Assembly: GCA_019308905.1 (NCBI GenBank)
Contig: JAFDHF010000003.1
Span: 10,282 to 74,281, forward strand
Direction: 5' to 3'
Origin: Deltaproteobacteria bacterium
GTDB taxonomy: Bacteria > Desulfobacterota > BSN033 > WVXP01
DNA: 64,000 bases
The position numbers were made by a program, and so were the translations under genes. The notes under the pieces are model-generated. The model searched no databases. It saw only the letters and a program-made list of their open reading frames with translations, and was not told the DNA's origin. Positions 6,149-63,132 of this stretch are shown here, one piece after another; position 1 is the first letter of the stretch; each line of letters opens with the position of its first letter.

Positions 6149-6176
6149 TAAAGTCCTCCCTCCAATCGACCGATAA
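6149..6176 (+). promoter_or_regulatory. Sigma-28 type promoter upstream of flagellin
   Basis: TAAAGTCC (6149-6156), then 12 nt, then ACCGATAA (6169-6176; 7/8 to GCCGATAA). The N12 spacer matches the flgM promoter in this window. About 185-nt leader to the fliC ATG. Confidence 0.55.
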
Positions 6177-6361: not shown

Positions 6362-7204
6362 ATGGCACTTCGTATCAACCACAACGTAATGGCTCTCAAT
6401 TCCTACCGGCACCTGAGCATCACCCAGGGCAAGCTGTCCAAGTCGATCGAGAAGCTCTCGTCTGGTCTCAGGATCGTCCGGGCAGCCGATGACGCCGCAG
6501 GCCTCGCGATTTCCGAGAAGATGCGGGCCGACATCCGCGGTTTCAATCAAGCGGTTCGGAATGCCAACGACGGTGTGAGCATGCTCCAGACCGCTGAAGG
6601 GGCTCTGAACGAGATCAGTGGCATGCTGACCCGAATGAGGGAGCTTGCCGAGCAGGCGGCAACGGGTACCGTGGGGACGAGCCAGAAGGGAACCCTGGAT
6701 CAGGAATTCCAGGCCCTGGTGAGCGAGATCAACCGGATCGCCGACGCTACGGAGTTCAACGGCACCAAGCTGATCAACGGTGCTCTCTCTTCCGGGTCCG
6801 CCACCGCGGCGACCTTCCAGATCGGTATCGGCAACAACTCGAGCACAGACAGGTTGAGCATCGGCATCAGCGGCATGCACGCGGCATCCATCGGCCTCAG
6901 CGGCATCTCCATAAGCGCCACCGCCAATGCTCTGACCGCTCTGGCGGCCGTCGACACGGCTATTGCCAATGTGGCCAGCCAGCGAGGCGATATCGGTGCG
7001 GTTCAGAACAGGCTCGAGAGCACCATAGCCAACCTCAATATCTCGGCAGAGAACCTGACGGCGGCCGAGTCTCAGATCCGTGATGTGGACATGGCGCTCG
7101 AGATGGCCAATTTCACCAAGAATCAGATCATGACCCAGGCTGGAACAGCCATGTTGGCCCAGGCGAACCTGGCCAACCAGTCGGTTCTGACGCTTCTTGG
7201 TTAA
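6362..7204 (+). CDS. fliC: Flagellin (short, 280 aa)
   Basis: MALRINHNVMALNSYRHLSITQGKLSKSIEKLSSGLRIVRAADDAAGLAISEKM... N-terminus and LLG C-terminus are flagellin D0/D1. AGGAGG RBS upstream. There is no hypervariable domain. The central segment is Ser/Thr/Ala-rich. Confidence 0.95.
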   Translation: MALRINHNVMALNSYRHLSITQGKLSKSIEKLSSGLRIVRAADDAAGLAISEKMRADIRGFNQAVRNANDGVSMLQTAEGALNEISGMLTRMRELAEQAATGTVGTSQKGTLDQEFQALVSEINRIADATEFNGTKLINGALSSGSATAATFQIGIGNNSSTDRLSIGISGMHAASIGLSGISISATANALTALAAVDTAIANVASQRGDIGAVQNRLESTIANLNISAENLTAAESQIRDVDMALEMANFTKNQIMTQAGTAMLAQANLANQSVLTLLG

Positions 7205-9586: not shown

Positions 9587-10039
9587 ATGAAGGGAGTATG
9601 TCACATGGATCTGAACTATTCCTTTACCCAGTACCAGAAGACCCGCTTTGTCACGGCGGACCAGGGCAGGCTGATTCTCATGATGTATGACGGGGCTATC
9701 CGGTTCATTGAACAGGCAAAGACGAAGATGGAAAGGGGAGACATCCCGGGCAAGGGGATTGCCATTGCAAGGGCCCAGGGTATAATTTCCGAATTGAACG
9801 GCAGCCTGAACCGAGAAAAGGGAGGCCAGTTGGCCCTTTCTCTGGAAACCCTTTATCTGTACATCAACAATCAGCTCTCCATGGCCAACCTCAAGAACAG
9901 CCAAGAACACCTGGACGACGCACTCAAGGTTATTCGGGAACTGTTGACCGGGTGGAAGGCGATTATCCAACGGCCCAACTCCCAGAGGCTCCACAGGGCA
10001 GCAAGAGATTTCAGGCCTGAGACCGCATCGGCTCTGTAG
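9587..10039 (+). CDS. fliS: Flagellin-specific chaperone FliS
   Basis: FTQYQKTRFVTADQGRLILMMYDGAIRFIEQAK...LYLYINNQL is the FliS four-helix-bundle signature. Start may be 9587 or the ATG at 9605. Confidence 0.85.
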   Translation: MKGVCHMDLNYSFTQYQKTRFVTADQGRLILMMYDGAIRFIEQAKTKMERGDIPGKGIAIARAQGIISELNGSLNREKGGQLALSLETLYLYINNQLSMANLKNSQEHLDDALKVIRELLTGWKAIIQRPNSQRLHRAARDFRPETASAL

Positions 10040-10147: not shown

Positions 10148-13100
10148 GTGGTCCGGGGATACGCCTCCCCGCCTTTGCTCCCGAATAACAACAAAAGACA
10201 TCCATGGGTACCTTGCCTCACCGGCCCGGTCTCCGTCTCAGGCATGGGTTGGTACGGCCTTTGCTTCCAAGGCGGTGGATATTTCCCTGACCGGAAAAGC
10301 AAACTGGAGGACGGGGTGGCTACCGGGTCGTGTCTCAATATCCTCACCTTCAACTGGCATGAGGCTTATCTGACGATGCTCGCCCGAACAGGGCATCTTT
10401 TCCACGCGGTGGAGGTCGCCAAGGGGGGACACTTCGGGTGGCAATACAACATGCGACCTCTCCCTGAAAACATCACCCTCCTGCAGGAGGCGGAGGCCCT
10501 CGCAAGGCTCCGGGCAGGGGATTTCGACCTCGTGGTATGCCATAACATGAGGGACCTTCTGGCAGTCGAAGGGGTCGATATCCCCAAGATCCTCGTGTTT
10601 CACAACAAGATCTCCACCGAAATCGCCCTGGGAGGCCACAGGGCCACAGCCGAACAGTACCGTACCGGGATCCGTGACCTTGCGGCAAGAAACCGTCTGA
10701 CCCTTGTCTTTATCTCCGAGTCTAAGCGGGAGAACTGCGCACTGGAAGGACCCGTGATCCTCCCAGGGATCGACCTGAATCACTACGGCGGGTATAAGGG
10801 GGAGGTGGAGCGGGTTCTCAGGGTGGGCAACCTCATGAAAGAACGGGACATCATGCTCGGGTTCTCATGGCAGGAGGAGATCCTGAGGGGTATCCCCTCC
10901 ACCCTTGTAGGAATCAATCCTACGGTTGCCGAGTCGAGAGTGTCGGAAAGCTGGCAGGATCTGAAGAACCACTATCAGAGCCACCGCCTTTTTCTCAACT
11001 CCACCCTCCATCCGTGGGAAGACGGGTACAACCTGGCCATGCTGGAGGCCATGGCCACGGGGATGCCTGTTGTCTCCATTGCGAACCCGACATCCCCGAT
11101 CGTGGACGGCATAAATGGTTACATTTCTCAGGACACGGCTTATCTGAGGCATAGGATCGAAGAACTTCTCTCGGACAGGGAAAAGGCCTCCGAACTCGGG
11201 AGGCAAGCCCGGAAGACTGTGGAGAAGCGGTTTCCCATGGCCCGGTTCGTCCGAGGCTGGAACCGTCTTTTCGAAAAGGTCATGGAGAGATCGACGAATC
11301 CCGCGATCCCCCGCTGGCGGAGAAATCCCGAGTGGTGTCGAGGCGGTCGCTCTCGGTCCACGAGGGAAAACACTGTTGGGATGAAAAACGTCCTTCTCTG
11401 CTATACCTCCAACCCGACTACGACGGGATGCTACCTGGAGAGAAGCTTCAGAAGGCATCACAACGTTATCACCTGTGGTCCTGCTATCAGCCGGGAAATG
11501 ATCCGCGCCTGGAACCTTGAAAACATGAAGGAGAAGCCCAGGACTCATGATTTTTCCTCGGCTTCAGTGGATCTGAGGGTTGTCATGGGATCCGTGGGCA
11601 AGGTTTGGCGCCCCGACTTCTTGCTCTGGGTCGAGACGGGGATCTGGTTTCCCCTGGAGGGGCTCGATTCACTCGACTGCCCCAGGGCCTGTTACCTCAT
11701 CGACACCCATCTGCACAGGGATCTCCATCTCAGGTGGGCCAGAAACTTCGATGTGGTCTTTCTGGCCCAGCGGGCCTATATCCCGATTTTCCAGGAGGCA
11801 GGGATAGAAAGGGTCTACTGGCTTCCTCTGGCCTGTGATCGTGATATCCACGGCAGGAAGAGGGTAAAGAAGCGCTATGATATTGGGTTCGTAGGGAGCA
11901 TCACCGCTGGAAACCAGAGGAGAATCGTTCTTCTCGATCGGCTTTCAAAGCGTTTTGATCTTCATGTTGAGAGATGTTTTCTCAAGGACATGGCCCGTGT
12001 TTTCAGTGCTTCGAGAATCGTCTTCAACAACGCCATCAAAGATGATCTCAACATGCGTATTTTCGAGGTCCTTGCCAGTGGAAGCCTTCTCCTTACCGAC
12101 AGGGCCAGGGGGAGCGGGCTCGAGGACCTCTTCCAGGACAGGGTCCACCTGGTGATCTACGAGGACGAGAGTCTGGAAGATATCGCCGGATACTATCTCG
12201 ACCATGAGGAAGAGCGGGAGGCCATAGCGGCCAGGGGAAGAAGAGAGGTCCTGATGAGGCATACCTACGACCACAGGGTTCGGGAGATCATCAACAGGCT
12301 CGGGGACGTGAGCCAACAGGGCAGTCGGAGGGCTTCCTGGAGGGCAATGAGAGGATTCAGGCGGAGGCCTCAGCAGGGGCCGAGCCCCGCGAGTTCGATT
12401 CCAGGTGAGAAACTCGAAGAGAAGGGCTGCCTGACCGAAGCGAGAGAGCGATATTGGGAGCGGTTGAAGAGAGACCCATCAGACAGAAGGGCGCTCATGG
12501 GGCTCGGCAGGATCTCCATCCGGTTTCAGAAGTGGCAGGCCGCAGAGTCATACCTCCAGAGGGCGGTTGATGTGGAGGAGGATTGGGAGTCGCTCTTTCT
12601 CCTGGCGAGGTGCAAGATGAATTCTGGAAAGCAGTCAGAGGCACTGGCCTATCTCGACAGAGCCAGGGATCAGGACGGCCGGGATCCCCGTCGTCGGACG
12701 GCGGTGCTCAGCGCCATGGGGGAGTGCCTGGGACAATTGGGTGATTACGAAAGAGCAGAGGCGAGCTTTGTCGAGGCCGCCGGTGTGGACCCCTCTTCCG
12801 ATGAGGCCTGGACCGGCTTGGGAGAGGTCGAAAGTATGAGAGGGAATCACGAAAAAGCAGAAGGGGCCTTTCGAAAGGCCGTCGGTATCAACTCGAAGAA
12901 CGATCGTGCCCGGTGCGGCCTGGGACTCGCCGTGTGGGAGCGGGGCAAAAGGGACGAGGCCATCGAAATACTCCAAAGGGCTCTCGACATAAACCCCGAA
13001 AACCTGGTCTGCCTGAACCGTCTTCTCGGATGCTGCCGCGAGGAGGGGATGTTCAATGTGGCGGAGAGGTATCTCAAGGAGTACCTGAGGGTCCATCCCT

Positions 13101-13333
13101 TGAATTGCGAGGTTCTTTACGGCTTGGGCTCGCTCTACTACGAGTGGGGGCGGTACGAGGAAGCCAGGAGAGCGGCGGAGACGATCCTCATGTTCGAGCC
13201 GAACCACAAAGGAGCAAATGAGATGACAGCCCTCCTCGCGGGCAAGGAGGAAAAGGGAAGTGAGGGGCGGCCCCCTCTGCCCGATCCGGGGGGTCCCGGG
13301 TCCTGGAAAAAGCAAGACCGGCCTATGCCTTGA
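10148..13333 (+). CDS. Multidomain glycosyltransferase: GT4-like + CgeB-like (Glyco_trans_1_2/DUF3880) + C-terminal TPR
   Basis: N-terminal part has EDGYNLAMLEAMATGMPVV (GT4 E-x7-E). The middle part has FEVLASGSLLLTD...HTYDHRVREI, CgeB-like. C-terminal about 300 aa are TPR repeats. Start uncertain (10148 or ATG 10244). Confidence 0.7.
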   Translation: MVRGYASPPLLPNNNKRHPWVPCLTGPVSVSGMGWYGLCFQGGGYFPDRKSKLEDGVATGSCLNILTFNWHEAYLTMLARTGHLFHAVEVAKGGHFGWQYNMRPLPENITLLQEAEALARLRAGDFDLVVCHNMRDLLAVEGVDIPKILVFHNKISTEIALGGHRATAEQYRTGIRDLAARNRLTLVFISESKRENCALEGPVILPGIDLNHYGGYKGEVERVLRVGNLMKERDIMLGFSWQEEILRGIPSTLVGINPTVAESRVSESWQDLKNHYQSHRLFLNSTLHPWEDGYNLAMLEAMATGMPVVSIANPTSPIVDGINGYISQDTAYLRHRIEELLSDREKASELGRQARKTVEKRFPMARFVRGWNRLFEKVMERSTNPAIPRWRRNPEWCRGGRSRSTRENTVGMKNVLLCYTSNPTTTGCYLERSFRRHHNVITCGPAISREMIRAWNLENMKEKPRTHDFSSASVDLRVVMGSVGKVWRPDFLLWVETGIWFPLEGLDSLDCPRACYLIDTHLHRDLHLRWARNFDVVFLAQRAYIPIFQEAGIERVYWLPLACDRDIHGRKRVKKRYDIGFVGSITAGNQRRIVLLDRLSKRFDLHVERCFLKDMARVFSASRIVFNNAIKDDLNMRIFEVLASGSLLLTDRARGSGLEDLFQDRVHLVIYEDESLEDIAGYYLDHEEEREAIAARGRREVLMRHTYDHRVREIINRLGDVSQQGSRRASWRAMRGFRRRPQQGPSPASSIPGEKLEEKGCLTEARERYWERLKRDPSDRRALMGLGRISIRFQKWQAAESYLQRAVDVEEDWESLFLLARCKMNSGKQSEALAYLDRARDQDGRDPRRRTAVLSAMGECLGQLGDYERAEASFVEAAGVDPSSDEAWTGLGEVESMRGNHEKAEGAFRKAVGINSKNDRARCGLGLAVWERGKRDEAIEILQRALDINPENLVCLNRLLGCCREEGMFNVAERYLKEYLRVHPLNCEVLYGLGSLYYEWGRYEEARRAAETILMFEPNHKGANEMTALLAGKEEKGSEGRPPLPDPGGPGSWKKQDRPMP

Positions 13334-14558
13334 TCCTCAGGGGAGAGCGGTGTCAACCCATACTGGCAAGGTCAGCCTTTACATACCCTGCCGAAACGCA
13401 GAGAAGCATCTGGAAAAGACTCTGAGGAGTGTCTTCTCCCAAACCCACCCGCTTCTCGAGGTCATCGCGGTGGACGACGGGTCCGAAGATCGTACGGGGG
13501 AGATTCTCGAGTCTTACGGGGTCAGAGTCGTCAGGCATCAAGAGCCCATGGGGATCACCCGGGCGCGCAATACCGCCCTCCACCATGCCAGAGGGGAATT
13601 CCTCGCCTCTGTCGATGCGGATGTCGTGCTCGAACCGGACTGGTTGGAGAAAATCATGACCAACTTCTCCGAAGGGTTTGTGGGGGGTGTTGGAGGGAGA
13701 ATCGTCGAAAGGAACGTCGATTCTCTGGTGGGGAGGTGGATCCTCGCCCACCGGAATCCAGACAAGGGAGAGACAAAACTGGTACCCCCGGCCCTTCCGA
13801 CCACGGCCGTGGTCTACAGGAGAAAGACCCTCCTGGAGATCGGCGGGTTCAACGACGATAAGCGTTACGACCACTCCGACCTCGACGCCTCAATGCGGGC
13901 GGTCATGATCGGATACAGGCTCGTCTATGAACCCGAAGCCACGTGCTATCACTACTTTCAGGGAGACATACGAAGGCTCTTTGACGGGATGTGGCGGTTC
14001 AAGAAAGACGCCTATGTGAACTGCGGGCTTTTTGTCAACCCCTTTGGTTTGAGAAGAAAGGTCGAAATAAACCTTGGCGAGTTTTACCAGATGCTGATGG
14101 ACGATTTCGGCGCTGGAAGGCGCACCATCATGCCTCTGGATATTATCGGGGCATTGCGTCATTCCCTCATGGACATCCGGCTTTATTGCAGACTCCACCC
14201 AGACCACATCAGAGGTCTTGAAGGGGACACCTTTGGAGCCCTGAAACTCGGGCTCCGATACATTCTGGAGCAAAAGGAGGCTGTCTCCGGCCCGCTGGCA
14301 GCGGATATTCTGAGAGAGATCTGGGACATTTCCGTGGACTCCGCAAGAGAGGGGGCGTTGTCCGAGTCCGCAGGGGGAAATGGGAATGTCGGCCTCTCCG
14401 GTTTTCTCAGGGCCCGGTTTCCAAGGGCCGATCTGGAGAGGGTCTCGGAGTGGCTGACCATGTTCCTGGGCTTCCTGAACAGTTTTCCCGACGAGATATG
14501 GGAAAGCATGAATAGACCGGCCGAGCAAGCAGGCCGGAGTATGACGGATCAGGGTTGA
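13260..14558 (+). CDS. GT2-family glycosyltransferase
   Basis: SLYIPCRNAEKHLEKTLRSVFSQTHPLLEVIAVDDGSEDRT...SVDADVVLEPDW is a GT-A DxD fold. Start uncertain (ATG 13260 overlapping the upstream gene, or GTG 13350). Confidence 0.8.
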   Translation: MRGGPLCPIRGVPGPGKSKTGLCLDPQGRAVSTHTGKVSLYIPCRNAEKHLEKTLRSVFSQTHPLLEVIAVDDGSEDRTGEILESYGVRVVRHQEPMGITRARNTALHHARGEFLASVDADVVLEPDWLEKIMTNFSEGFVGGVGGRIVERNVDSLVGRWILAHRNPDKGETKLVPPALPTTAVVYRRKTLLEIGGFNDDKRYDHSDLDASMRAVMIGYRLVYEPEATCYHYFQGDIRRLFDGMWRFKKDAYVNCGLFVNPFGLRRKVEINLGEFYQMLMDDFGAGRRTIMPLDIIGALRHSLMDIRLYCRLHPDHIRGLEGDTFGALKLGLRYILEQKEAVSGPLAADILREIWDISVDSAREGALSESAGGNGNVGLSGFLRARFPRADLERVSEWLTMFLGFLNSFPDEIWESMNRPAEQAGRSMTDQG

Positions 14559-16084
14559 GGGCAGAGCATATGGAAAAGACGATGGCTGAAACCGCAAGCT
14601 GGAAGGCAGGGGAAGGCGACGTCAGGGTCTTCGACACCCACCCGGAAGCCGTTGCCCTTCAGCCTTTTTGTGTGGGAAAGGGTGTGGACGTGGGGTGCGG
14701 CTTCAGGAAGACACACCCCGACGCGATCGGTATCGATTTGCTGGGAAAAGGTGAGATAGGGCAGTACGGTTGCATGGAGGGAATGCCCTCTGTTGCAGAC
14801 ATAAAGGCATCAGGGGACGATCTCTACATGTTCAAAGACGGGGAACTCGACTACGTGGTGAACAGGCATAATCTCGAGCACTATGTGGACGTCGTCAAGA
14901 CTCTTTGGGAATGGAAGCGGGTGCTTAAGATCGGAGGAGTGCTGGGCATGGTCCTTCCCGATGAGACCAGACTCGATACCATAGCTCTCGATCCCACCCA
15001 TAAGCATGTTTTCACGCCCGAAAGCATAACGAACCTACTTGTATTGATCGGTGGGTTTCGGGTGGAGAAGGTCGAGGTCGTAATTCCCGACTGGTCATTC
15101 CTCGTGGTCGCAAGGAGGGTCGAGGAGAAGGGGGCGCTGGGTAAAACGTTACCGAGTGGGCTGTTCGGAGAACTTCGGTCTTGCCTTCCGGAGCGGCGCG
15201 GATCCTTGCAGCAGGAAGACTCGGATTCGGCTTGTGAAGGATCTGCCGTGGCGACAAGTACGTACAGCCATATACCCACAATTATCCGTTTCCTGAAAAA
15301 GACAAGGCCTTCGTCGATTCTCGACGTGGGCGTTGGAAACGGGAAGATCGGCTTTGTTGCGAGGGACTACCTCGATGTGATGCTGGGCCAGAGAAACAGG
15401 AGAAAAGACTGGAGAGTGAGGATAGACGGAATCGAGATATTCTCTGACTATATCCAGGAACATCAGAAGGCCGTTTACGACAGTATCTTCATCGGTGACG
15501 CCTTGGATGTCATCCAGAAGCTGGAAAGATACGATGTTGTCATCCTCGGCGACGTGGTCGAGCATCTCGAGAAAGAAAGGGCAATGGATCTGCTGGACGC
15601 ATGTGCTTCTCGGTGCGGTTACATGATTCTGGCCATGCCACTGGGAAGGAACTGGAAACAACCCGCCGTGTACGGCTACCCCTCCGAGGAGTGCTGCTCC
15701 TTTTGGCAATACGAGGAGTTCAAGCCTTTTGTCTGTGATGAGGAGCTCTTCTCGTTTTCCGGTACCGGTGACTACGGGTGCTTTCTCGTGCAAACCGAGG
15801 ATTATCTTCACCATCGTACAAGGGAGAAGGCGGACGCCCTCTTCTCGGAAGGAAAGAGGGATCAGGCCGTGGCGTACATGGAGAATTCGATCCGTCAACT
15901 TCCCCCAAACGTGGAGAGTGAGTATATCCTGGTGGACCTGCTTCTCAAGAGCGGCAGGATCCGGGAGGCGGTGGATCGCCTCAAAGGGATTCTGAATGTA
16001 TTCCCCGAGAACAGGGCGGCCAAGCGGTATCTTGGCATGCTTGCCGAAAAGACTACGGTAGCTTCCCAACCGGGGAACCAGTGA
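14555..16084 (+). CDS. Tandem class I SAM-dependent methyltransferase domains + C-terminal TPR
   Basis: Two motif-I glycine loops (VDVGCGFRK... and ILDVGVGNGKIG...), each followed by acidic motifs. TPR-like C-terminus. ATGA overlap with the upstream gene. Confidence 0.75.
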   Translation: MRAEHMEKTMAETASWKAGEGDVRVFDTHPEAVALQPFCVGKGVDVGCGFRKTHPDAIGIDLLGKGEIGQYGCMEGMPSVADIKASGDDLYMFKDGELDYVVNRHNLEHYVDVVKTLWEWKRVLKIGGVLGMVLPDETRLDTIALDPTHKHVFTPESITNLLVLIGGFRVEKVEVVIPDWSFLVVARRVEEKGALGKTLPSGLFGELRSCLPERRGSLQQEDSDSACEGSAVATSTYSHIPTIIRFLKKTRPSSILDVGVGNGKIGFVARDYLDVMLGQRNRRKDWRVRIDGIEIFSDYIQEHQKAVYDSIFIGDALDVIQKLERYDVVILGDVVEHLEKERAMDLLDACASRCGYMILAMPLGRNWKQPAVYGYPSEECCSFWQYEEFKPFVCDEELFSFSGTGDYGCFLVQTEDYLHHRTREKADALFSEGKRDQAVAYMENSIRQLPPNVESEYILVDLLLKSGRIREAVDRLKGILNVFPENRAAKRYLGMLAEKTTVASQPGNQ

Positions 16085-16123
16085 GGTGGAAGCCCGGTCG
16101 CTCGATCCCATGGAGAGATACCA

Positions 16124-17821
16124 TTGGCGAAGTTGGTCTGGGCCAGCCTGGATGACTACCTGCCCCCTGGCAAGGGTTTTGGGTGTGTGGGCAGAAGCGT
16201 GGCAAACCACGCCTTCTTCCAGGCTCTCATGAGATACGGCCGTTTCGACGAATACCACTTTTTCCTCGCAAACGGGAGTCACAGGAGGGCCTTCGAGACG
16301 GGCCACGGAGGCTTTCTGGAATCCGTGGGTGCGAGCAAGAAGGTGAGACTATTCGACCGCTTGGACCTACCGGAGCAGGTGAGCAAGTACGACTATACGG
16401 TCTTTCATCAGGGCGATCACATAACCTACTTCAACTCTCTCTGCCACTTTCGTAACCGATCGGCTTCCTTCCCTGTCACGGCTTTCATCCACTCGTTGAG
16501 CTATCAGAGCTTTATGAGCACCTACCTCCAGATGACCCTCGGGGGGGTGACATGCTCTGATGCGTTGATTTGTTCGTCCGTGAGTGGGAAAAAGGTACTC
16601 GAAAACTGTTTTGGACACATTGCCCGTCAGTTGAAAAGAGAGCCCCCCTCCGTTCAGATGGAGGTCATTCCGCTCGGGGTGGACGGCGGGGGCATGTACA
16701 AACTCAGCCGGCGTGCTGCCAGGAAGCGGCTCGGGCTTGATGAGAAGGAAGTGATCGGGCTCTGTTTCGGCAGATTCTCAGACTACGACAAGATGGATCT
16801 CTTCCCACTGTTGCAGGCCTTCCAGATGATTCTGAGAGCGGGCCGGCCGTGGAGACTGATCCTGGCCGGGGCCGTTCACGTGGAGGCCTATCTTGAAATC
16901 TTGAAGCTATGGGCCAGGGTTTTGGGAGTTTCCAATAGGGTGACTTTTCTCACCAACCTCTCAGAGGAGGAGAAGGCAGCTGTCTACGGGGCTGCCGACT
17001 TCTTTACTTCCGTCAGCGACAACCCCCAGGAGACCTTCGGGATTACCCTTCTGGAGGCCATGGGATGGGGGCTCCCCCTCCTTGTCTCCGACTTTGACGG
17101 ATACAGGGAGATCGTCACCGAGGATGTGGGAAGGAGAATCGCGACCACATGGGGCGACTTTGAACCCTTCTGGAAGCTGAGCCCTCTGATGGACGAGGTC
17201 ACCCTCCATCGATATCTCGGCCAGTCGGTCTGTGTGGACGTGGAGGGACTGGCCGACGGCCTGGAGTTCTTCTTCTCGGACCCGGATCGCTGCCGGGAAA
17301 TGGGAATGGCAGCCAGAGAACGATTCTTGAGGCTCTACGACTCACGCGTGATCATTCCACGGTTGGAAGCCCTCTGGACGAGGCTGAAAGAGGGTTTTCG
17401 TCCCGGCCCCGGAGCTTCCTGCGAAGACCCTCTGGCCATGAAGGCCTTTCCCTGCTTCTCGCACTATGTGACCCAGACTCTGAGTCACGAGATGAGGATA
17501 AGAACCACCCGGTTTGGGCGGAGCCTGCTGGCTTCAGAAGTGCGGTATCCCCTGCTCTCGGGGATGGGCCGTCTGGTAGATCCTGAAGAAACAGGTCTTG
17601 TTATGGCCCAGGCAATGGACCCCTGTTCGGTCGGCCAGATTTTGAGGAGCGCCGAGCACCAAGAGTGGAAGAGGCGCTATCTGATACTGTGGATGCTCAA
17701 ACACGGCCTCTTGCAGTTTGTTCCGCATACTGATCGAGAAGGGAACAGACATGCCCCGGAACAGGATGAAACGAGTCCGCTGCTCTTTGCAGGAGACACA
17801 GGGCGTACGGTCCATCGGTAG
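16124..17821 (+). CDS. GT4-family glycosyltransferase
   Basis: C-terminal half ...ETFGITLLEAMGWGLPLLVSDFDGYREIV is a Glycos_transf_1 signature. TTG start. Confidence 0.75.
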   Translation: MAKLVWASLDDYLPPGKGFGCVGRSVANHAFFQALMRYGRFDEYHFFLANGSHRRAFETGHGGFLESVGASKKVRLFDRLDLPEQVSKYDYTVFHQGDHITYFNSLCHFRNRSASFPVTAFIHSLSYQSFMSTYLQMTLGGVTCSDALICSSVSGKKVLENCFGHIARQLKREPPSVQMEVIPLGVDGGGMYKLSRRAARKRLGLDEKEVIGLCFGRFSDYDKMDLFPLLQAFQMILRAGRPWRLILAGAVHVEAYLEILKLWARVLGVSNRVTFLTNLSEEEKAAVYGAADFFTSVSDNPQETFGITLLEAMGWGLPLLVSDFDGYREIVTEDVGRRIATTWGDFEPFWKLSPLMDEVTLHRYLGQSVCVDVEGLADGLEFFFSDPDRCREMGMAARERFLRLYDSRVIIPRLEALWTRLKEGFRPGPGASCEDPLAMKAFPCFSHYVTQTLSHEMRIRTTRFGRSLLASEVRYPLLSGMGRLVDPEETGLVMAQAMDPCSVGQILRSAEHQEWKRRYLILWMLKHGLLQFVPHTDREGNRHAPEQDETSPLLFAGDTGRTVHR

Positions 17822-17858
17822 ATGATGGAGATCGGGCGAGTCACGGGCGGTTTGTATT

Positions 17859-52634: not shown

Positions 52635-55049
52635 GTGATGAATCTGGAACTGCTGGCCATAGAGTATTCCTCCCGTATGGCGAAGAGGTGGTATCTCCAT
52701 CCTGATTTCGCCTCTATCGGGTTGTACGAGGGCGTCCATCTCGGAGAGTGCAGCGAGTACACGGTATTCCGTGAGTTGATGCGGATTGTCAAGTTCAAGC
52801 TCCTGACCTGCCGGCCCGGTGGCCCAGGAGCCCTGCCGCCGGAAAGCATGGAAGGGCCGTCACTGAGAAAGGCAAGGCAATCCCGCCTGCTCTCTTTCGA
52901 ACAATTGGCCGCCTCTGCTCGCATCACAGACCAGGATTCGCCAAGGCCCGCCATCCTCCTCAGCGTTCGAGCCCAGAATCTGGCCCTCGCCCGTGCCCTG
53001 GACAGCAGCGGTGTTTTCGACCTCGTTGTCGAGGGCAACAGAGAAGCCATATCCCGGCCCCTGATCCGGAACGGGATCGACTACGAGAGATTCGAAGACT
53101 TCCTCACCCCTGAGATAAGGCTCGCGTGTGAGGCAAGGTTTGCGGCTCTCATGCCCCTTTGGATGGAGGCCGTTGAAGGTAAGTCCTTCCAGGCCCAGTT
53201 TTCATTGGGAGAGACGAGCCTTTTCCCTGAAATCGGGGACAGCCTCCGGAACCTCTTTCAAGGGGAGTTCCTGCAAGAGGCGCTGTACATCGAAACCCTC
53301 AAGCATCTTGTCCGGCAGCGGCGGCTCGTGATGGTTCTGGTCTGGAATGACAGCCTGCCCCTTCACAGGGCACTGGTGCTCTTTGCACAGGAAGCCGGGG
53401 TCCCGGTGCTCCACGTTGCTCACGCGATTTACGGAATGGAACCTACAAACGAAGTCGTCTATGCCGACAGAATCGCCGTTTACGGGGACCACAGCAAGGA
53501 GCTCTATGTGGGGAGGGGAAATCCACCCGAAAAGGTGGTCGTTACCGGGAACCCGGACTGGGACAAGTACAAGTACCTGCACACGGTACTGAGTAGAGCC
53601 GAAGTCTGCCGATCCCTCGGGCTTGACCGGAGAAAACGGATCGTCCTGTTTGCTACGTTCTTTGTTGCCGGTCCCATGGCGGCGGCAGACTCTTCGCTGC
53701 CGAAGAGGTTCTTCCAGACTCTCCTCAGGTCGATAAAGCGGCTAGGGTCTCGGTATCAGATGCAGCTCGCAGTCAAACTCCACCCGGCCGAACGGGACAG
53801 GGGATCCTGGTACCGGAGGATTGCAGCCCAAGAGGATATGGGAGACGTGGTGGTCGAAGCAGGCCATTTGGAAGAACTCCTCTTTGTCAGTGATCTTCTC
53901 ATATGTCGGGGATCGAACATCGGTTTCGAGGCCCTCTTGCTGGGCAAGCCCGTCATTTCCTATGGTTTGCCTGTGCGAGGCGAGGAAGAGGCGGTGACGA
54001 TCGTCAAAGACTCTTCCGAACTCACCCGTGCGATCGAAAAGAGCCTTTTTGACTATACCTACCGGGAAGCACTGGAGAAGAAAAGAGAAAAAGCAATATA
54101 CAGATTTAATTACCTGTGGGATGGCAGGGCAACCCATCGGGTGCTGGGTCTGATCGAGGAGATGACCGGTATCGATATAAGGATTCCGGATGACTTTGTT
54201 CCATTCACCCTCTCCGGATCTGGAGGAGTGGGGGATGACGGCAAACCGAAAGAAGAGTTCGGAGCGCCCTTGCTGGAGGAGGGTGACTACGCCGATGCCA
54301 GAGGAGAGTTTGAAAAAGCATTGGACATCTATCGGACGGCTCAGAAGATGTATCCATCCTCGCCGGAGCTTCTCAAACGGCTCGGCAGGACCCTGCTCAA
54401 GACCGGGCGCCTTGATGAAGGGATGGAAAGTCTGAGTGCCCTTATCCGGATAGACCCTGAAAACATGGAAGGCCATCTGCTGATGGCCCTGGCTTTGTAT
54501 TCCCAGGGAAGGCACTCCTCGGCGTTGAATCACCTGAGGTCGGTCCTCGGTTCGAAGCGGTCCACAGAGGAAGAGCGGAGATTGGCTTACCTTCACACCG
54601 GACGGTGCAAGAGGGCGATGGGGGACCTCGAAGGTGCAGAGGACGGCTACCGGGAGTGCCTTCTGCTTGACCCTGATTCAAGAGAGATCCTAAAGGAACT
54701 AGGCAGTCTCTATTTTGAAACGGCAAGATTCGACCTGGCACACAGTGCTCTTCGTAGAGTTGTCGCAGAGGATCCGGGTGATACAGAGGCACTCAGTGAT
54801 TTGGGGGTCGTGCTCTTTCACATGGGGGAGGTTGAAGAGGGAAAGTCATACCTGAGAAAGGCTCTGGAGCGAGACCCGGACCGCTTCGAAACCATGGCCA
54901 ATCTGGCGGAGGTCGAAAGAGCGGAGGGACACCTCGAGAACGCTCTGGCCCTTGTAGGTAGATTCCTCGAGAGAAATCCCGATATGGAGAGGGCACGGCG
55001 GATATACGATGAGCTCCATGCAGAAAGTTCTGGTGATTCAACTGGCTAG
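52635..55049 (+). CDS. GT-B-like transferase (KLHP/HP-motif, CMP-sugar-type candidate) with C-terminal TPR repeats
   Basis: Central ...HVAHAIYG...VVVTGNPDWDKY...AVKLHPAERD... resembles the capsule-synthesis/sialyl-type HP motif. The C-terminal 250 aa are TPR repeats. Confidence 0.5.
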   Translation: MMNLELLAIEYSSRMAKRWYLHPDFASIGLYEGVHLGECSEYTVFRELMRIVKFKLLTCRPGGPGALPPESMEGPSLRKARQSRLLSFEQLAASARITDQDSPRPAILLSVRAQNLALARALDSSGVFDLVVEGNREAISRPLIRNGIDYERFEDFLTPEIRLACEARFAALMPLWMEAVEGKSFQAQFSLGETSLFPEIGDSLRNLFQGEFLQEALYIETLKHLVRQRRLVMVLVWNDSLPLHRALVLFAQEAGVPVLHVAHAIYGMEPTNEVVYADRIAVYGDHSKELYVGRGNPPEKVVVTGNPDWDKYKYLHTVLSRAEVCRSLGLDRRKRIVLFATFFVAGPMAAADSSLPKRFFQTLLRSIKRLGSRYQMQLAVKLHPAERDRGSWYRRIAAQEDMGDVVVEAGHLEELLFVSDLLICRGSNIGFEALLLGKPVISYGLPVRGEEEAVTIVKDSSELTRAIEKSLFDYTYREALEKKREKAIYRFNYLWDGRATHRVLGLIEEMTGIDIRIPDDFVPFTLSGSGGVGDDGKPKEEFGAPLLEEGDYADARGEFEKALDIYRTAQKMYPSSPELLKRLGRTLLKTGRLDEGMESLSALIRIDPENMEGHLLMALALYSQGRHSSALNHLRSVLGSKRSTEEERRLAYLHTGRCKRAMGDLEGAEDGYRECLLLDPDSREILKELGSLYFETARFDLAHSALRRVVAEDPGDTEALSDLGVVLFHMGEVEEGKSYLRKALERDPDRFETMANLAEVERAEGHLENALALVGRFLERNPDMERARRIYDELHAESSGDSTG

Positions 55050-56685
55050 AATGGGGGACGTCCTCCAATCATCGGCGCTCGTCCAGGGCATCAGGGAGAA
55101 GAACCCGGATGCCATGGTCACCTTTCTGACAAGTGAGAAGACAAGGGACGTGGCCAGCAGTATAGGTGGTGTTGACGACGTCATCAGTCTCGATTTTGGC
55201 CAGGCTTCAGGCATTGCAAGTGACCGAGAGGCCGGGCTGTCGGAAAGGTACCGTCGCCTGTCGTCCCTCTTGAATGATCTCAAAGGGAGATGTTTTGATC
55301 TTGTCTATAATCTCAACTACTCGTGTGTGAACACCGGTCTGATGAACCTGATCCGCTACAGAAGAGCCCTCTGTTACAGCCTCGACACCAGCAGGAGGCA
55401 GATCGTGAAGAGCCCGTGGCTCAGCTACCTGTTGAGCATGCTGGGAGACAGACGGCTCAACCTGTTCAATCTCGTCGATCTGTATCTTAGGGGATCTGGA
55501 CTTTCCGTTCGGAAACCCTCCCTCTCTTTCCAGTTGGACAGAAGGGCCATGGACTCAGTCGACCGGTTCCTCACCGGGCAGGGTATCCAGCACCGGGAAC
55601 GGTTGGTGGGGTTCCAACTGGGGGCAGGCGACTCGGTCAGGTGTTGGCCCGTTGATTCCTACAGGGTTCTGGCAGATCGGTTGATCCGGAGACGGGGTGT
55701 GAGGATTCTCCTTTTCGGCACCTCCTCTGAGACGCCCCAGGCAGAGGCGCTGAAGGCGTGTTTCACGGCAGAAGGGACGGACCCGACCCGCAGGGGACTG
55801 GTCATCGATCTCGTTGGGAAGACCAGCACCAGGGAGCTGGCCTGCTTCTTGAGGCGTTGCGACCTCCTCGTAACGCCGGATACGGGCACCATGCACCTTG
55901 CCTGCGCCGTCGGCACCAGGGTTCTCGCACTTTTCATGGGATCGGCATTTCCCCATGAGACCGGCCCTTATGGCACGAATCACTTCGTTCTCCGACCGGT
56001 GCTTCCTTGCTATCCCTGTTTTGAGGGGGGGCCTTCCTGCACCAGTCAGGAGTGCAAGAGACTGATCCGGCCCGAGAAGGTGGCCCTCGTGGTGGAGAGA
56101 CTCCTGGCCGGGAACAACGGGGATCTGGAAAAGGGAGTGTCTGACTTCCTCGATTCGAACCTGATCCTTCTCCGCTCGGCAATGACACCCGATTGCGTCG
56201 GGTACAGCAGGGTCTGCCAAAGCACCGCTTCTCTTGAGGACGTCTTTGCCCTCGCATACCGCGCCATGTGGCAGGGCGTGCTCGATGAGGACCGGATCTG
56301 TGACTCCTCCGGGCAGGCGAATGTCCTGGAAGCTCTCGCCGTGCCTTTGCACGGTGGAGACCTGGTCGGTGATTTGAAGGAGGCCGAAAGGGATTTTGAC
56401 AGACTTCAAAGGATGCTCGCGGCCTACGGTGCATCGATGCGGGGTGGAAATGGCCCGTCGGGCCCAGACTTGAACCTCATGGCGGCCACCCTGAGATCAG
56501 AGGAGGACAAGAGGAGTAGGTGGGCAAAGCCGATACCGCGTTTCTTCGACGTGGAGTATGCCAATATCCGACTCTCCGGGAGAGATGTCAACAGGCGGGT
56601 GGAGAGACTGGTGGGAGGGCTTGCCTGGGGGGCCGGCTTCATGAAGGCCTTTGTCAGGCGGTTAGTGAGAACTCTCTCTTCCTGA
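55009..56685 (+). CDS. GT9-like (heptosyltransferase-fold) glycosyltransferase with C-terminal extension
   Basis: KVLVIQLARMGDVLQSSALVQGIREKNPDAMVTFL and TPDTGTMHLACAVGTRVLALF match the GT9 N-terminal and nucleotide-sugar-binding motifs. Confidence 0.7.
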   Translation: MSSMQKVLVIQLARMGDVLQSSALVQGIREKNPDAMVTFLTSEKTRDVASSIGGVDDVISLDFGQASGIASDREAGLSERYRRLSSLLNDLKGRCFDLVYNLNYSCVNTGLMNLIRYRRALCYSLDTSRRQIVKSPWLSYLLSMLGDRRLNLFNLVDLYLRGSGLSVRKPSLSFQLDRRAMDSVDRFLTGQGIQHRERLVGFQLGAGDSVRCWPVDSYRVLADRLIRRRGVRILLFGTSSETPQAEALKACFTAEGTDPTRRGLVIDLVGKTSTRELACFLRRCDLLVTPDTGTMHLACAVGTRVLALFMGSAFPHETGPYGTNHFVLRPVLPCYPCFEGGPSCTSQECKRLIRPEKVALVVERLLAGNNGDLEKGVSDFLDSNLILLRSAMTPDCVGYSRVCQSTASLEDVFALAYRAMWQGVLDEDRICDSSGQANVLEALAVPLHGGDLVGDLKEAERDFDRLQRMLAAYGASMRGGNGPSGPDLNLMAATLRSEEDKRSRWAKPIPRFFDVEYANIRLSGRDVNRRVERLVGGLAWGAGFMKAFVRRLVRTLSS

Positions 56686-56701
56686 GAAGGGATAGCGAGC
56701 C

Positions 56702-58537
56702 ATGGACCTTTTTGAAAGAAATCTCAAGATTCTCAATCGGATCGACGGTAGTCTCGCCAGGAGAATGGAAAGAACCAGGGCTCTGCCCTCAGCCGAAGTC
56801 CTCGAGGCAAAAAACGGCAGCCTGACATTGAAGGTCGATGGTGCGGCCTTGCACAGCACGTACGATCCGGTGAGAGAGGCGATGGTCTCGGTGGAGAGAT
56901 TCCTGGAAAAGGAGCCCGGGCCGGGGCCGATCTTCGTTCTGGGCCTGGGGTTCGGATACCATGTGGAGAGGCTTCATAGGGCGGCTCCCTCCTCGCCTCT
57001 GATCCTTGTCGAGCCCACTCCGGGGATCTTTCGACTCGCCCTTGAAAAGATCGAGATGGAAGGAATCCTCGCGCCGTGCCGCCGTGTTTTCGTGGGAGAG
57101 GCCGTTGATGAGGTCTTTGCCAGAATCAATGAGAAATCCCTTCTCCGAGGCGGGTACCGGGTCTTCGTGCACCCCCCGTCCCTTAAGATGAGCCGGGCCT
57201 ATCTCGACCGGCTGCTTGCCGGGCTTGAGGCAAGGGAGATTCTGGCAGGACTGAGGCTCAACATACTGGTCGTGCCACCGGTCTACGGGGGATCCCTCCC
57301 TGTCGCCGACTACTGTGTCCGAGCCCTGAGGAGAATGGGCCACACGGTCACCACGGTTGATAACTCAAAATATCTCGGACTCTTCAAGGAGATCGAAGGG
57401 GTTACGACCAATCGGTTTCACCAGCGTCAGTTGCAGGGTTCTCTCACCCAGCACCTCTCGGAGATCGTGATGGCAAGATGCCTGAACCTGAAGCCGGACT
57501 TGATCCTCGCCCTGGCCCAGGCCCCACTGACTCCTGAGATTCTTGACAGGATGAAGAGGTTTGGGATGCTCACGGCATTCTGGTTCGTGGAGGATTTCAG
57601 GGAGCTTCCCTACTGGAGAGAGGTGGCGGCTGGATATGGTCATTTTTTTGCCATCCAACGTAGAGAGGCCTTTGAAGAATCGGGCGGACTCGACGGAGTG
57701 GATTTTCACTATCTGCCCCTGGCCTGTGACCCACGTGTTCACAGGCCAGTGATACTCAATGACAGGGAGAGAAAACGCTACGGTTCTGAGGTCTCCTTTG
57801 TAGGAGCCGGCTATTACAACCGGCGCGTGTTTTTTGAGGGGCTCCTTGATTTGGATTTCAAAATTTGGGGAACAGAATGGGATCTCCTATCTCCTTTGAG
57901 CCGTGCGGTCCAGGAAGGGGGCCGGAGGGTCACAGCCCGGGAAGCCGTAAAGATCTTCAACGGGTCAGCGATCAATGTCAATCTCCATTCTTCCACATAC
58001 CACAGGGGGGTCAACCCGGCAGGGGATTTTGTCAACCCCAGAACCTTTGAGATCGCATCGAGCAGGGGGTTTCAACTCGTCGACCGCCGGTCCGACCTGG
58101 GTGAGCTGTTCCAACCCGGCCGGGAGCTCGTCTGCTTCGAGACCATAGAGGATCTCCGAGACAAAATCGCCTACTATCTGTCCCACAGAGAGGAGAGGGA
58201 AGAGATTGCGGCAAATGGCCAGAGGAGGGCCCGAAGGGATCATACCTATCAGAAGAGGATGACAAGGATTCTGGAAGCGGTAGTGGAAGGGAACCTCTCC
58301 CGTTTCAGGGAACTAAAAAGGAGCATCCAGACACCGGAGCGGTTGATCGCCGAGGCAGGGCCCGAAACGGAGCTCGGGCGATTCTTGAGGCGTTTCAGGG
58401 ACAGGGACCGCCTGACCCTGGATACGATAACCTCCGAGATCCGCCGCGGCCGGGGGAGGCTCACCGAGCCTGAGGTTATCTTCCTTTTAATGGAGGAATT
58501 CTCCAAGCAGGGCAGGAAAAGTCTGGGAGAGCAATGA
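56702..58537 (+). CDS. Maf-like (DUF115) + CgeB-like (Glyco_trans_1_2) flagellin glycosyltransferase candidate
   Basis: N-terminus MDLFERNLKILNRIDGSLARRME...IFVLGLGFGYHVERL is DUF115/Maf-like. The C-terminal half (...FEIASSRGFQLVD...REEREEIAANGQRRARRDHTYQKRM) is CgeB-like. Confidence 0.65.
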   Translation: MDLFERNLKILNRIDGSLARRMERTRALPSAEVLEAKNGSLTLKVDGAALHSTYDPVREAMVSVERFLEKEPGPGPIFVLGLGFGYHVERLHRAAPSSPLILVEPTPGIFRLALEKIEMEGILAPCRRVFVGEAVDEVFARINEKSLLRGGYRVFVHPPSLKMSRAYLDRLLAGLEAREILAGLRLNILVVPPVYGGSLPVADYCVRALRRMGHTVTTVDNSKYLGLFKEIEGVTTNRFHQRQLQGSLTQHLSEIVMARCLNLKPDLILALAQAPLTPEILDRMKRFGMLTAFWFVEDFRELPYWREVAAGYGHFFAIQRREAFEESGGLDGVDFHYLPLACDPRVHRPVILNDRERKRYGSEVSFVGAGYYNRRVFFEGLLDLDFKIWGTEWDLLSPLSRAVQEGGRRVTAREAVKIFNGSAINVNLHSSTYHRGVNPAGDFVNPRTFEIASSRGFQLVDRRSDLGELFQPGRELVCFETIEDLRDKIAYYLSHREEREEIAANGQRRARRDHTYQKRMTRILEAVVEGNLSRFRELKRSIQTPERLIAEAGPETELGRFLRRFRDRDRLTLDTITSEIRRGRGRLTEPEVIFLLMEEFSKQGRKSLGEQ

Positions 58538-62057: not shown

Positions 62058-62714
62058 ATGCGAGTCTGTGTAGACGATCTCGAAGAAAAGATGGAGTTCC
62101 CCCCCGGGTTTTCCCTCGGGGAAATAATCAATCAGCTCTGTACCGAGAAGATCTCTCAGGACAGGGTAATCACCCGGGTTCGAGTCAACGGAGAGGAACT
62201 CGCTGAGGATGAGAGCGGCCTTTTTCCGGATGTTCCGGGCGGTGAAATAGATTCGTTGGAACTCGAAACAGAACACTCCTTTGAAACAGGGTACCGGGGA
62301 ATCGTGGATGCAAAGGAGTATCTGAAGAAACTCACCTCCGGAATTCAAGAAACGGCCGAACTCTTCCGGACGGGAGAAGAGAAGAGGGCTCACAATCGGT
62401 ATGCTCTCTGCATGGAAGGAATCAACTGGTTCATCCAAATCCTGGAAGGGGCGAGGCAGGTGATGGGCCTCGACTACGGTACGATGGTCTTCAACCGGGT
62501 TTCGGTAGACTCCTATATCGAAAACCTCCAGCATATCATCGGCGAAATGTTGTCAGCCCAATCCGATGAAGACTGGGTGATGCTGTCCGACCTTCTCGAG
62601 TATGAACTGCTGCCGACTCTGGAAGGATGGAAGGGGATCGTTCCCCTCATAGAGGAAGCGGCCAGAAAGCGGTGGGAAGAGGCAAAAGGCGGTGAAGCGA
62701 CCAGAGGGGGGTAA
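62058..62714 (+). CDS. Hypothetical protein
   Basis: 218-aa ORF following the island. No recognisable motif. GGAGG RBS upstream. Confidence 0.4.
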   Translation: MRVCVDDLEEKMEFPPGFSLGEIINQLCTEKISQDRVITRVRVNGEELAEDESGLFPDVPGGEIDSLELETEHSFETGYRGIVDAKEYLKKLTSGIQETAELFRTGEEKRAHNRYALCMEGINWFIQILEGARQVMGLDYGTMVFNRVSVDSYIENLQHIIGEMLSAQSDEDWVMLSDLLEYELLPTLEGWKGIVPLIEEAARKRWEEAKGGEATRGG

Positions 62715-63132
62715 GGGCAGAGGCCCTGAAACGAGACTTCTCCAGCTTCTCGCTCTTGCCAAGGAGCTTTGCGGTCTAACAGAGCGCCAGAGGGACGCGA
62801 TCCGATCAGGAGACTGGGAGCGCCTCAATGCGATTCTTGATCAAAAGGACCGATTGATCCATGCCTTCCAGGAGATGGAGGCGTCCGTGAAAGACGGGGA
62901 GGCGCCCGAGCAAACGGATACCTCCCCTGCGAGTGCCGAAAGCCTGCTGGCAGCCATCAAATCGAAGCTGACCGACACCCAATCCATTGAGGAGGAGTGC
63001 GAGCGCTTGCTGGTGGAAGAGAAAAACCGGACTGCCGTGACCCTCGGACAGATCAGGAGGCTCCACGACGGGATCAGGAGATTTGTGTCGCGGAGGCCTG
63101 GATCCGCAAGGTTTGTCGACCTTCGAAAATAG
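62692..63132 (+). CDS. Hypothetical coiled-coil protein (possibly FlgN/FliT-like chaperone)
   Basis: Helical, Leu/Glu-rich (LLQLLALAKELCGLTERQRDAIRSGDWERLNAILDQKDRLIHAFQEME). Assignment is tentative. Confidence 0.3.
   Translation: MKRPEGGKGRGPETRLLQLLALAKELCGLTERQRDAIRSGDWERLNAILDQKDRLIHAFQEMEASVKDGEAPEQTDTSPASAESLLAAIKSKLTDTQSIEEECERLLVEEKNRTAVTLGQIRRLHDGIRRFVSRRPGSARFVDLRK

Follow-up and report, generated by a model that had tools for sequence, protein, structure and literature searches.

A tetratricopeptide-repeat glycosyltransferase and methyltransferase block next to fliS as a candidate module for flagellin glycosylation

We analysed a window of 64,000 nucleotides from a Deltaproteobacteria bacterium (assembly GCA_019308905.1, contig JAFDHF010000003.1, positions 10,282 to 74,281 of the forward strand), which starts in a late flagellar gene cluster and continues into a long series of sugar-metabolism genes. 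The five genes that follow fliS, here named A (10316-13333), B (13350-14558), C (14570-16084), D and E, encode glycosyltransferases (GTs) and a protein with two methyltransferase domains, and in A and C the enzymes are joined to tetratricopeptide repeats (TPRs). We propose, with chances that we judge to be about even, that genes A-E (10316-18842) represent a cytoplasmic module for flagellin O-glycosylation and glycan methylation. The proposal builds on the observed domain composition, the intact catalytic and S-adenosylmethionine (SAM) motifs, the solubility of the proteins, synteny and gene fusions. According to the proposal, the products of A-E would build and tailor an O-linked glycan on the short flagellin whose gene lies 3 kb upstream, and glycosylation would precede the step at which FliS delivers the flagellin for export. 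Glycosylation of flagellin has effects on filament assembly, on motility and on recognition by the immune system, and its enzymology is understood for few types (Maf, FlmG and a handful more).

The gene map was based on a six-frame list of the open reading frames (ORFs) in the window and a Pfam profile search. It revealed that the interval 10148-16084 contains three consecutive ORFs on the plus strand, not two. The genes to which the proposal refers are the following.

6362..7204, plus strand: flagellin of the short type, 280 aa, with the D0/D1 domains only and a Ser/Thr-rich centre (Pfam Flagellin_N and Flagellin_C)
9587..10039, plus strand: fliS, flagellin export chaperone and upstream border of the island (PF02561, 127 bits)
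10316..13333, plus strand: gene A, 1005 aa, three domains, namely a GT4-like GT-B domain, a CgeB-like GT-B domain and eight TPRs (Pfam, start codon with ribosome-binding site, AlphaFold model)
13350..14558, plus strand: gene B, 402 aa, GT2 (GT-A) glycosyltransferase (PF00535, Glycos_transf_2, 117 bits)
14570..16084, plus strand: gene C, 504 aa, methyltransferase domains MT1 and MT2 and a short TPR tail (Pfam; ATG at 14570)
16124..17821, plus strand: gene D, soluble GT4 glycosyltransferase, 565 aa as an ORF (PF00534, 79 bits), in the same position in the related locus L040
17859..18842, plus strand: gene E, soluble GT4 glycosyltransferase, 327 aa (PF00534, 44 bits), the last gene of the fliS-proximal block and conserved in L040

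The domains in the interval are real, with E-values from 1e-8 to 1e-37 that are far past chance. No transmembrane segments were found in A, B, C, D or E, as expected for cytoplasmic protein glycosylation. Gene A most likely starts at the GTG codon at 10316, which is preceded by GGAGG, and then encodes 1005 aa. Its product is 100% identical to a public protein of that length (P0001, “MAG: glycosyltransferase [Deltaproteobacteria bacterium]”). A first-pass annotation of the interval had described a 1061-aa protein with GT4, CgeB and TPR domains; the domains were recovered with Pfam and in the structural model, but the length is an artefact of taking the longest ORF. The same annotation had the methyltransferase protein directly after this gene and thereby overlooked the 402-aa GT2 gene B, which lies between the two, while it correctly placed the enzymes next to fliS, located directly upstream.

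The product of gene A consists of three parts.

10316..11299, plus strand: GT4-like GT-B domain, residues 1-328 (PF00534, PF13692, Foldseek match to BshA)
11378..12322, plus strand: CgeB-like GT-B domain (DUF3880 followed by Glyco_trans_1_2), residues 355-669 (PF13524, PF12996)
12404..13255, plus strand: superhelix of eight TPRs with 16 helices, residues 697-980 (TPR Pfam models, AlphaFold helices, Foldseek)

The first domain has the features of a GT4-type enzyme, namely Pfam scores above the gathering thresholds (PF00534, Glycos_transf_1, 33.1 bits versus 26.4, and PF13692, Glyco_trans_1_4, 41.3 versus 27), a GT-B fold and a conserved acidic motif. The Pfam match covers approximately residues 269-356 in the numbering of the ORF 10148-13333. 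Residues R169, G171, N172, R177 and D178 (RVGN..KERD) and E235-D236...E244 are invariant in 40 homologues, and membership in the family would make this domain a retaining enzyme. In the second domain, PF12996 (DUF3880, 26.3 bits versus a gathering score of 25.2) is followed in the correct order by PF13524 (Glyco_trans_1_2, 127.1 versus 25), and N579-M580-R581-x-F583-E584 is invariant in the same 40 homologues. Since the nucleotide-sugar and catalytic motifs are invariant in both GT-B domains, both look catalytically competent.

The AlphaFold (AF2) model of A, computed as a single chain from the 40 homologues, has a mean predicted local distance difference test (pLDDT) score of 88.6 and a predicted template modelling (pTM) score of 0.49. 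The linkers at residues 329-354 and 670-693 are disordered, and the low pTM score suggests that the three domains are arranged like beads on a string. A Foldseek search against the PDB matched the GT-B domains to the GT4 enzyme BshA, and the TPR domain to consensus TPR proteins with eight repeats and to the TPR superhelices of OGT and SPINDLY. A sequence search for solved relatives returned TarM and BshA for the C-terminal part of the first GT domain only, and none for the CgeB-like domain. No Pfam match to MAF_flag10/DUF115 was obtained at E <= 0.01 for A, B or C, no GT41 match was obtained for A, and the TPR domain of A shows no clear Asn ladder. The resemblance to the substrate-binding TPRs of OGT and SPINDLY, along with two complete GT-B domains with invariant motifs, is one of the arguments for the proposal. 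Under the proposal, A would be the acceptor-directed enzyme, with the eight-TPR superhelix, the presumed acceptor-docking module, docking on flagellin as the TPRs of FlmG and Maf-1 do. The two flexibly linked GT-B domains would act in succession, with the CgeB-like domain as the likelier one to make the priming transfer to Ser/Thr and the GT4-like domain as the likelier one to add the next sugar.

Genes B (GT2), D and E (GT4) would then lengthen the chain. Gene B starts with GTG at 13350, preceded by GGGGAGAG, and its product has a C-terminal extension of approximately 170 aa and the DxD-type motifs DDG and DAD. It has a counterpart in the same place in locus L040. B was compared with the GT2 part of the GT2-MT1 fusions P0140-P0144 as a possible orthologue, but the identity is only 23-30%, and no Rosetta-stone claim is made for B for that reason.

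Gene C most likely starts at the ATG at 14570 within the ORF 14555-16084, and its product can be divided as follows.

14627..15139, plus strand: MT1, class I SAM methyltransferase, residues about 20-190 (PF08241, Methyltransf_11)
15272..15793, plus strand: MT2, class I SAM methyltransferase, residues about 235-408 (PF13489, AF2 Rossmann fold)
15794..16066, plus strand: five C-terminal helices, about two TPRs (TPR_19, consensus TPR matches, AF2 helices at 194-284 of the model)

MT1 matches PF08241 with 37.6 bits (gathering score 21.2), and MT2 matches PF13489 (Methyltransf_23) with 33 bits (gathering score 27), its second half also matching Methyltransf_12. The invariant motifs are GxDVGCGxRK...HNLEH...THxH and GxDVGCG...IGxD in the MT1 family and LDVGxGxG...DGIE...GDVxEH in the MT2 family. 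In both, motif I and a downstream acidic residue are invariant, as in class I SAM methyltransferases, and both are predicted to bind SAM. The AF2 model for C, which covers MT2 and the TPR tail only, has a pLDDT score of 87.9 and shows a seven-strand Rossmann fold followed by five helices. The two methyltransferase domains with TPRs of the first-pass annotation are thus present, although the TPRs amount to about two repeats only. That they form a designed unit was not borne out, as the MT1 and MT2 halves show no detectable similarity to each other (BLASTP E = 0.19) and, among 5.8 billion clustered proteins, occur together elsewhere only in P0121. The latter is 99% identical and is encoded in a different assembly on an 8.3-kb contig, and this second copy on a separate contig indicates that the fusion is real but confined to this lineage. 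Judged from the sequences, gene C joins two unrelated modules in this lineage only and is not a bifunctional enzyme by design.

The two modules have different relatives. MT1 is 66-76% identical to methyltransferase domains located behind the GT4-CgeB cores of proteins from Nitrospirota, and the module is elsewhere fused to GT2, GT9 and GT4 enzymes and to one Maf_N-CgeB protein. Stand-alone members of the MT1 family often have N-terminal TPRs. MT2 with its TPR tail corresponds to a stand-alone family of approximately 280 aa (P0122-P0139, 51-63% identical, with 58-63% for the MT2 domain), and in L040, the closest relative, an orthologous stand-alone MT2+TPR gene holds the position right after the GT2 gene. 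In another related locus (L124, 1148-10879), an MT2-type gene occurs with genes for a TylF-type sugar O-methyltransferase, a protein of GT2 and TPRs, a GT9-GT4-CgeB fusion of 906 aa, a GT9 and a Maf_N/CgeB protein. Here the domains of the window are shuffled into other fusions.

These patterns bear on the methyl acceptor. The recurrent fusions of MT1 to glycosyltransferases, the methyltransferase inserts in homologues of A (see below) and the TylF-type gene in L124 all point to methylation of the glycan. We propose that gene C would methylate the glycan, with MT1 as a glycan-tailoring module and MT2 reaching the same glycoprotein through its own short TPR tail. The profile and fold matches of the methyltransferase domains in the PDB are to generic class I enzymes (SgvM, Hen1, DnrK, NTMT1 and a glucose O-methyltransferase), and the structure does not reveal the methyl acceptor. 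Alternatively, the GTs would act on flagellin while one or both domains of C would methylate amino acids of the flagellin, lysines or the N-terminus, with MT2 binding the protein through its TPR tail. MT2 is otherwise a stand-alone protein with a TPR of its own, Foldseek matched it to enzymes that methylate protein N-termini (NTMT1 and NRMT2) among others, and glycosylated flagellins of Shewanella and Aeromonas are documented to carry methylated lysines (PMC9290775). However, ribose 2'-O-methyltransferase Hen1 and small-molecule O- and C-methyltransferases give equally good fold matches, and neither domain of C matches the FliB-type family of flagellin lysine methylases in Pfam or NCBIfam. The recurrent fusion of MT1 to glycosyltransferase domains and the sugar O-methyltransferase in L124 also count against methylation of the protein, and we consider this alternative improbable.

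Returning to flagellin glycosylation, the position of the block is one argument for it. The window starts with a late flagellar cluster that consists of flgI, the gene for the rod-binding protein, flgM, flgN, flgK, flgL, csrA, fliW, the flagellin gene, flaG, fliD and fliS. Gene A starts 277 nt past fliS, with no convincing promoter or terminator in the gap, and the order is kept in L040, in which A, GT2, MT2+TPR, GT4 and GT4 follow each other identically. The flagellin at 6362-7204 is the presumed acceptor protein. A sigma-28-like promoter (TAAA-N17-CCGATA) at 6149-6175, approximately 190 nt 5' of the flagellin gene, is the sole match of this type in the window, against 0.11 expected by chance. 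Between flgL and fliW there is an 82-aa ORF for csrA (5181-5429), and the fliW ORF (5426-6070) is overlong at its N-terminus, with the Pfam match beginning at residue 89 and a likely start near 5636. With csrA and fliW beside the flagellin gene, the CsrA-FliW-flagellin partner-switch set is present. No Rfam matches and no meaningful repeats were found in the window.

To place the block in a broader context, we collected 87 loci encoding a homologue of A from genomes and metagenomes and mapped the proteins of the window onto them. We detected 611 homologues, mostly in Nitrospinota, Nitrospirota and delta-type metagenome-assembled genomes. Many of them are approximately 1125 aa long and have a methyltransferase inserted between the CgeB-like domain and the TPRs. 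Flagellar linkage was counted in the 62 loci whose sequence extends 1.5 kb or more upstream. A gene for FliS (15 loci), FliW or FlgL ends at most 1.5 kb upstream on the same strand in 29 of them, including Leptospirillum and another Nitrospirota genome, and the recurrence of this adjacency in several lineages supports a flagellar role. In the Leptospirillum-type loci (L004, 8317-11371, and L005, 9947-13307), a separate 347-aa CgeB-like gene lies directly after fliS and ahead of a GT4-TPR gene. The domain order is swapped relative to the window, and the two catalytic modules are thus separable. The flagellins that adjoin homologues of A are all short (279-285 aa). Caulobacter, Listeria and Clostridioides difficile glycosylate flagellins of this short type, and their presence beside these genes is consistent with the proposal.

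Partner genes were counted in the 42 loci that extend far enough downstream. In 32 of these, a gene of Maf_N/CgeB type and one for a long GT9 come after the homologue of A, and the triad of A, Maf-N/CgeB and GT9 is thus a conserved core, which appears to be undescribed. In the window, the triad is split, with A at 10.3 kb and its usual downstream partners displaced by approximately 42 kb.

55009..62035, plus strand: GT9, Maf-N/DUF3880/CgeB, GT9, Maf-N/DUF3880/CgeB, the usual downstream partners of A-type genes (Pfam)

In the two Maf-N/CgeB proteins (genes 56702 and 60266), a CgeB-type GT-B domain takes the place of MAF_flag10, and Maf_flag10_N was found only there and not in A, B or C. The GT9 partners are unusually long, approximately 580 aa. 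In Lachnospiraceae/Butyrivibrio loci from gut and rumen Firmicutes (L008, L013, L014, L020, L028 and L029), flagellin genes are accompanied by tandem arrays of up to eight CgeB-like genes (DUF3880/Glyco_trans_1_2). Both the downstream partners with a Maf N-terminal domain and the tandem CgeB-like genes beside flagellin genes argue for flagellin as the target. The strength of the triad also fits another explanation, that the TPRs of A bind a chaperone or partner (FliS, FliW, Maf-N/CgeB or GT9) rather than flagellin, and that A is an elongating enzyme in a complex primed by another enzyme. The triad is more strongly conserved than the linkage to flagellin genes, the TPR sequence of A is poorly conserved apart from the last repeats, Maf-2 requires the adaptor GlfM to bind flagellin, and GT9-type enzymes include protein O-heptosyltransferases (TibC/AAH). 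In both systems that have been tested experimentally, however, the TPR binds flagellin directly, and no small adaptor-like gene is conserved beside A. We regard partner binding as a rather unlikely explanation for the TPRs of A.

Past fliS, approximately 52 kb of the window consists of sugar-metabolism genes on the plus strand. Genes A-E are followed by NusG-like and MarR genes, a NeuB-KdsC fusion with GmhA-like and PseF-like genes, AsnB, six radical-SAM enzymes, a sulfotransferase and more GT2 and GT4 genes, and then by the gene 52635 and the GT9/Maf_N set. Two further genes in the distal part are of interest here.

52635..55049, plus strand: GT-B protein (Glyphos_transf/Capsule_synth-like) with approximately 250 aa of TPRs (Pfam)
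62692..63132, plus strand: weakly FliT/FlgN-like helical protein, 146 aa, right after the last glycosyltransferase (PF05400 FliT 25.7 bits and PF05130 FlgN 25.5 bits, both below gathering)

The 52635 protein ends in TPRs, as the first-pass annotation had stated. Its GT-B part was considered as a possible relative of FlmG or of a nonulosonic-acid transferase. The family is rare, with 15 homologues among 5.8 billion clustered proteins and none with an informative name, and its matches to the NCBIfam models of BFO_1060 type and TIGR04396 are below the cut-offs. With fliS at one end and the FliT/FlgN-like gene at the other, the island appears to be bracketed by flagellar chaperone genes. The FliT/FlgN-like gene may mark the downstream flagellar border, and the island may be an insertion between fliS and fliT. 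We also compared the TPRs of A, C, 45582 and 52635 as candidates for one specific docking module, an idea that found no support, as they share only a generic identity of approximately 25%.

Right after gene E, genes for a NusG/KOW paralogue and a regulator of MarR type (19153-20707) separate the fliS-proximal GT and methyltransferase block from the sugar-synthesis genes, and a separate transcription unit may begin there. These are followed at 20750-24774 by a NeuB-type synthase fused to a HAD phosphatase of KdsC/Kdn-9-P type, a GmhA-like SIS isomerase and a PseF-like cytidylyltransferase. All of these sugar-acid enzymes score below the NCBIfam equivalog cut-offs, and the set suggests an unusual nonulosonic or octulosonic acid pathway. 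The six radical-SAM enzymes, three with SPASM and one with a B12-binding domain, and the sulfotransferase are located at 28267-29703, 37756-40510, 46897-49057, 49916-50998 and 40635-42065. In the related locus L042, radical-SAM/SPASM proteins themselves contain TPRs. The only membrane proteins in the island are two proteins with multiple transmembrane segments (518 and 768 aa; 33042-36901; no Pfam match) and a GT2 with two transmembrane segments (42129-43211). Their presence hints that the middle part includes a lipid-linked branch or has another target.

A further possibility is that the block instead makes or decorates a surface polysaccharide or lipopolysaccharide (LPS), with the adjacency to fliS as an accident of insertion and the TPRs holding together a multi-enzyme complex or tying it to a membrane scaffold. 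About half of the homologous loci lack flagellar linkage, the GT9 partners are members of the heptosyltransferase family, which is typical of LPS core synthesis, and the NusG-like and MarR genes after gene E, as well as the multi-transmembrane proteins and the two-transmembrane GT2 in mid-island, are in line with such a role. Tandem GT4 polymerases with a terminating methyltransferase are also known from O-antigen synthesis by WbdA/WbdD. On the other hand, A-E are soluble, and the Pfam search of the island detected no family of flippases, polymerases or ABC exporters, although the two multi-transmembrane proteins at 33042-36901 match nothing. Further points against it are the adjacency to fliS, fliW or flgL in 29 loci of several lineages, the partner genes with a Maf N-terminal domain, and the FliT-like gene that closes the island. 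The loci away from flagellar genes are compatible with a flagellin target as well, since flagella are encoded in the core genome of Nitrospinae (PMC5029188). We therefore consider a surface polysaccharide or LPS to be an unlikely product of the block.

Flagellin glycosylation by A-E must itself be weighed against several observations. The flagellin acceptor is inferred throughout, as are the TPR docking site, the order of the reactions (CgeB-like priming and GT4-like extension) and the sugar, not the protein, as methyl acceptor. No flagellar gene lies directly upstream in 33 of the 62 loci, and in Nitrospinaceae the triad forms an operon of its own, surrounded by housekeeping genes. Within A, conservation is lowest in the TPR domain, apart from the last repeats, and a docking site shared by the TPR proteins of the island is not supported by their sequences. 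The fold matches of MT2 span both protein N-terminal methyltransferases and sugar or small-molecule O-methyltransferases, and none of the NCBIfam models is matched above its cut-off by A, B or C. The true priming enzyme could be one of the Maf-N/CgeB fusions, the long GT9s or the 52635 GT-B+TPR protein. Finally, the membrane proteins in mid-island, the two-transmembrane GT2 and the NusG-like and MarR genes indicate that part of the 52 kb may serve a lipid-linked surface polysaccharide. The first-pass annotation had suggested that the TPR-bearing GTs engage flagellin, which agrees with the precedents of FlmG and Maf-1, the placement by fliS, fliW and flgL, the Maf-N partners and the solubility of the proteins, but is harder to reconcile with the half of the loci away from flagellar genes. 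Its suggestion of methylated sugars is plausible for MT1, given the fusions to GT2, GT4, GT9 and CgeB-type GTs elsewhere, but for MT2 the acceptor cannot be deduced from fold matches that extend from sugar and small-molecule O-methyltransferases to protein N-methyltransferases. On balance, its observation was partly confirmed and its interpretation partly supported.

More tentatively, and with chances that we put clearly below even, the A-type, Maf-N/CgeB and GT9 proteins might represent an unrecognised third major class of flagellin O-glycosylation beside Maf and FlmG. Such a class would be found widely among Nitrospinota, Nitrospirota and Desulfobacterota-like bacteria, and Lachnospiraceae would have versions with CgeB alone. 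A CgeB-type domain would prime Ser/Thr and be aimed by interchangeable adaptors, either TPRs or the Maf N-terminal domain, and TPR-bearing methyltransferases would tailor the glycan on the protein. In the literature searched, we found no paper that ties CgeB, DUF3880 or Glyco_trans_1_2 to flagellin. If flagellin is the target, a large unstudied family would join the flagellin glycosyltransferases, in organisms of environmental importance such as nitrite oxidisers, iron oxidisers and relatives of sulfate reducers. It would become a stronger rule that a soluble glycan enzyme is aimed at one protein by a TPR or other adaptor, and the rule would be extended from glycosyltransferases to methyltransferases. 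Annotation could also improve for the CgeB-like genes that adjoin flagellin genes in gut Lachnospiraceae.

Among the known systems, FlmG of Caulobacter crescentus and Brevundimonas resembles A in architecture, as a soluble polypeptide with TPRs and a GT-B domain that is encoded with flagellar genes. The N-terminal TPR of FlmG binds all Caulobacter flagellins, while the C-terminal GT-B domain alone neither binds flagellin nor complements the mutant (PMC7591256). FlmG acts on short flagellins in the cytoplasm, and binding of its TPR to flagellin, on which glycosylation depends, has been demonstrated. Gene A combines two features of the FlmG class, TPRs and GT-B in one soluble polypeptide and a location in a flagellar locus. 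However, FlmG has an N-terminal TPR and one GT domain, whereas A has a C-terminal TPR behind two GT-B domains. Furthermore, the donor of FlmG is pseudaminic or legionaminic acid, whereas the GT4 and CgeB domains of A more probably use ordinary nucleotide sugars, and FlmG is reported to be confined to Caulobacterales. A survey of Clostridium flagellar islands from 2026 already picks out candidate flagellin glycosyltransferases by the combination of a GT domain with a TPR (PMC13317340).

The order of the domains in A, with the catalytic part followed by a C-terminal TPR, is instead that of Maf-1 from Shewanella oneidensis, in which the C-terminal TPR binds flagellin and is needed for glycosylation (bioRxiv 10.1101/2023.12.03.569772). 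The catalytic domain of Maf is MAF_flag10/DUF115 (GT-A-like), which is not present in A. The second GT domain of A is related to CgeB of B. subtilis, with which it shares the Pfam families DUF3880 and Glyco_trans_1_2. CgeB has been proposed to O-glycosylate Thr112 of the crust protein CgeA with a UDP-sugar donor (PMC13577073). It is a single-domain protein of 317 aa without TPR and with a target in the spore crust, and the biochemical evidence is preliminary. The TPR precedents of FlmG and Maf-1 and the proposal for CgeB are nonetheless among the reasons for which we favour a flagellin target for A-E.

The eukaryotic OGT and the plant protein SPINDLY also join a protein-selecting TPR superhelix to a GT-B domain, and they are the best natural structural matches to the TPR domain of A. 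Since they have a GT41 catalytic domain and an N-terminal TPR, the likeness is limited to the superhelix and represents an analogy rather than a family relationship. In E. coli O8/O9a O-antigen synthesis, the multi-GT4 polymerase WbdA acts with WbdD, a terminating SAM methyltransferase that acts on the end of the glycan. The tandem GT4 modules and the methyltransferase recall the block described here, but WbdA/WbdD are membrane-anchored, use a lipid-linked substrate and have neither TPRs nor a flagellar context, so that the analogy is mechanistic only. The system in the window is distinguished from all of these by two GT-B catalytic domains of families that have not yet been tied to flagellin, by the conserved partnership with Maf_N/CgeB and GT9, and by methyltransferases that bear TPRs.

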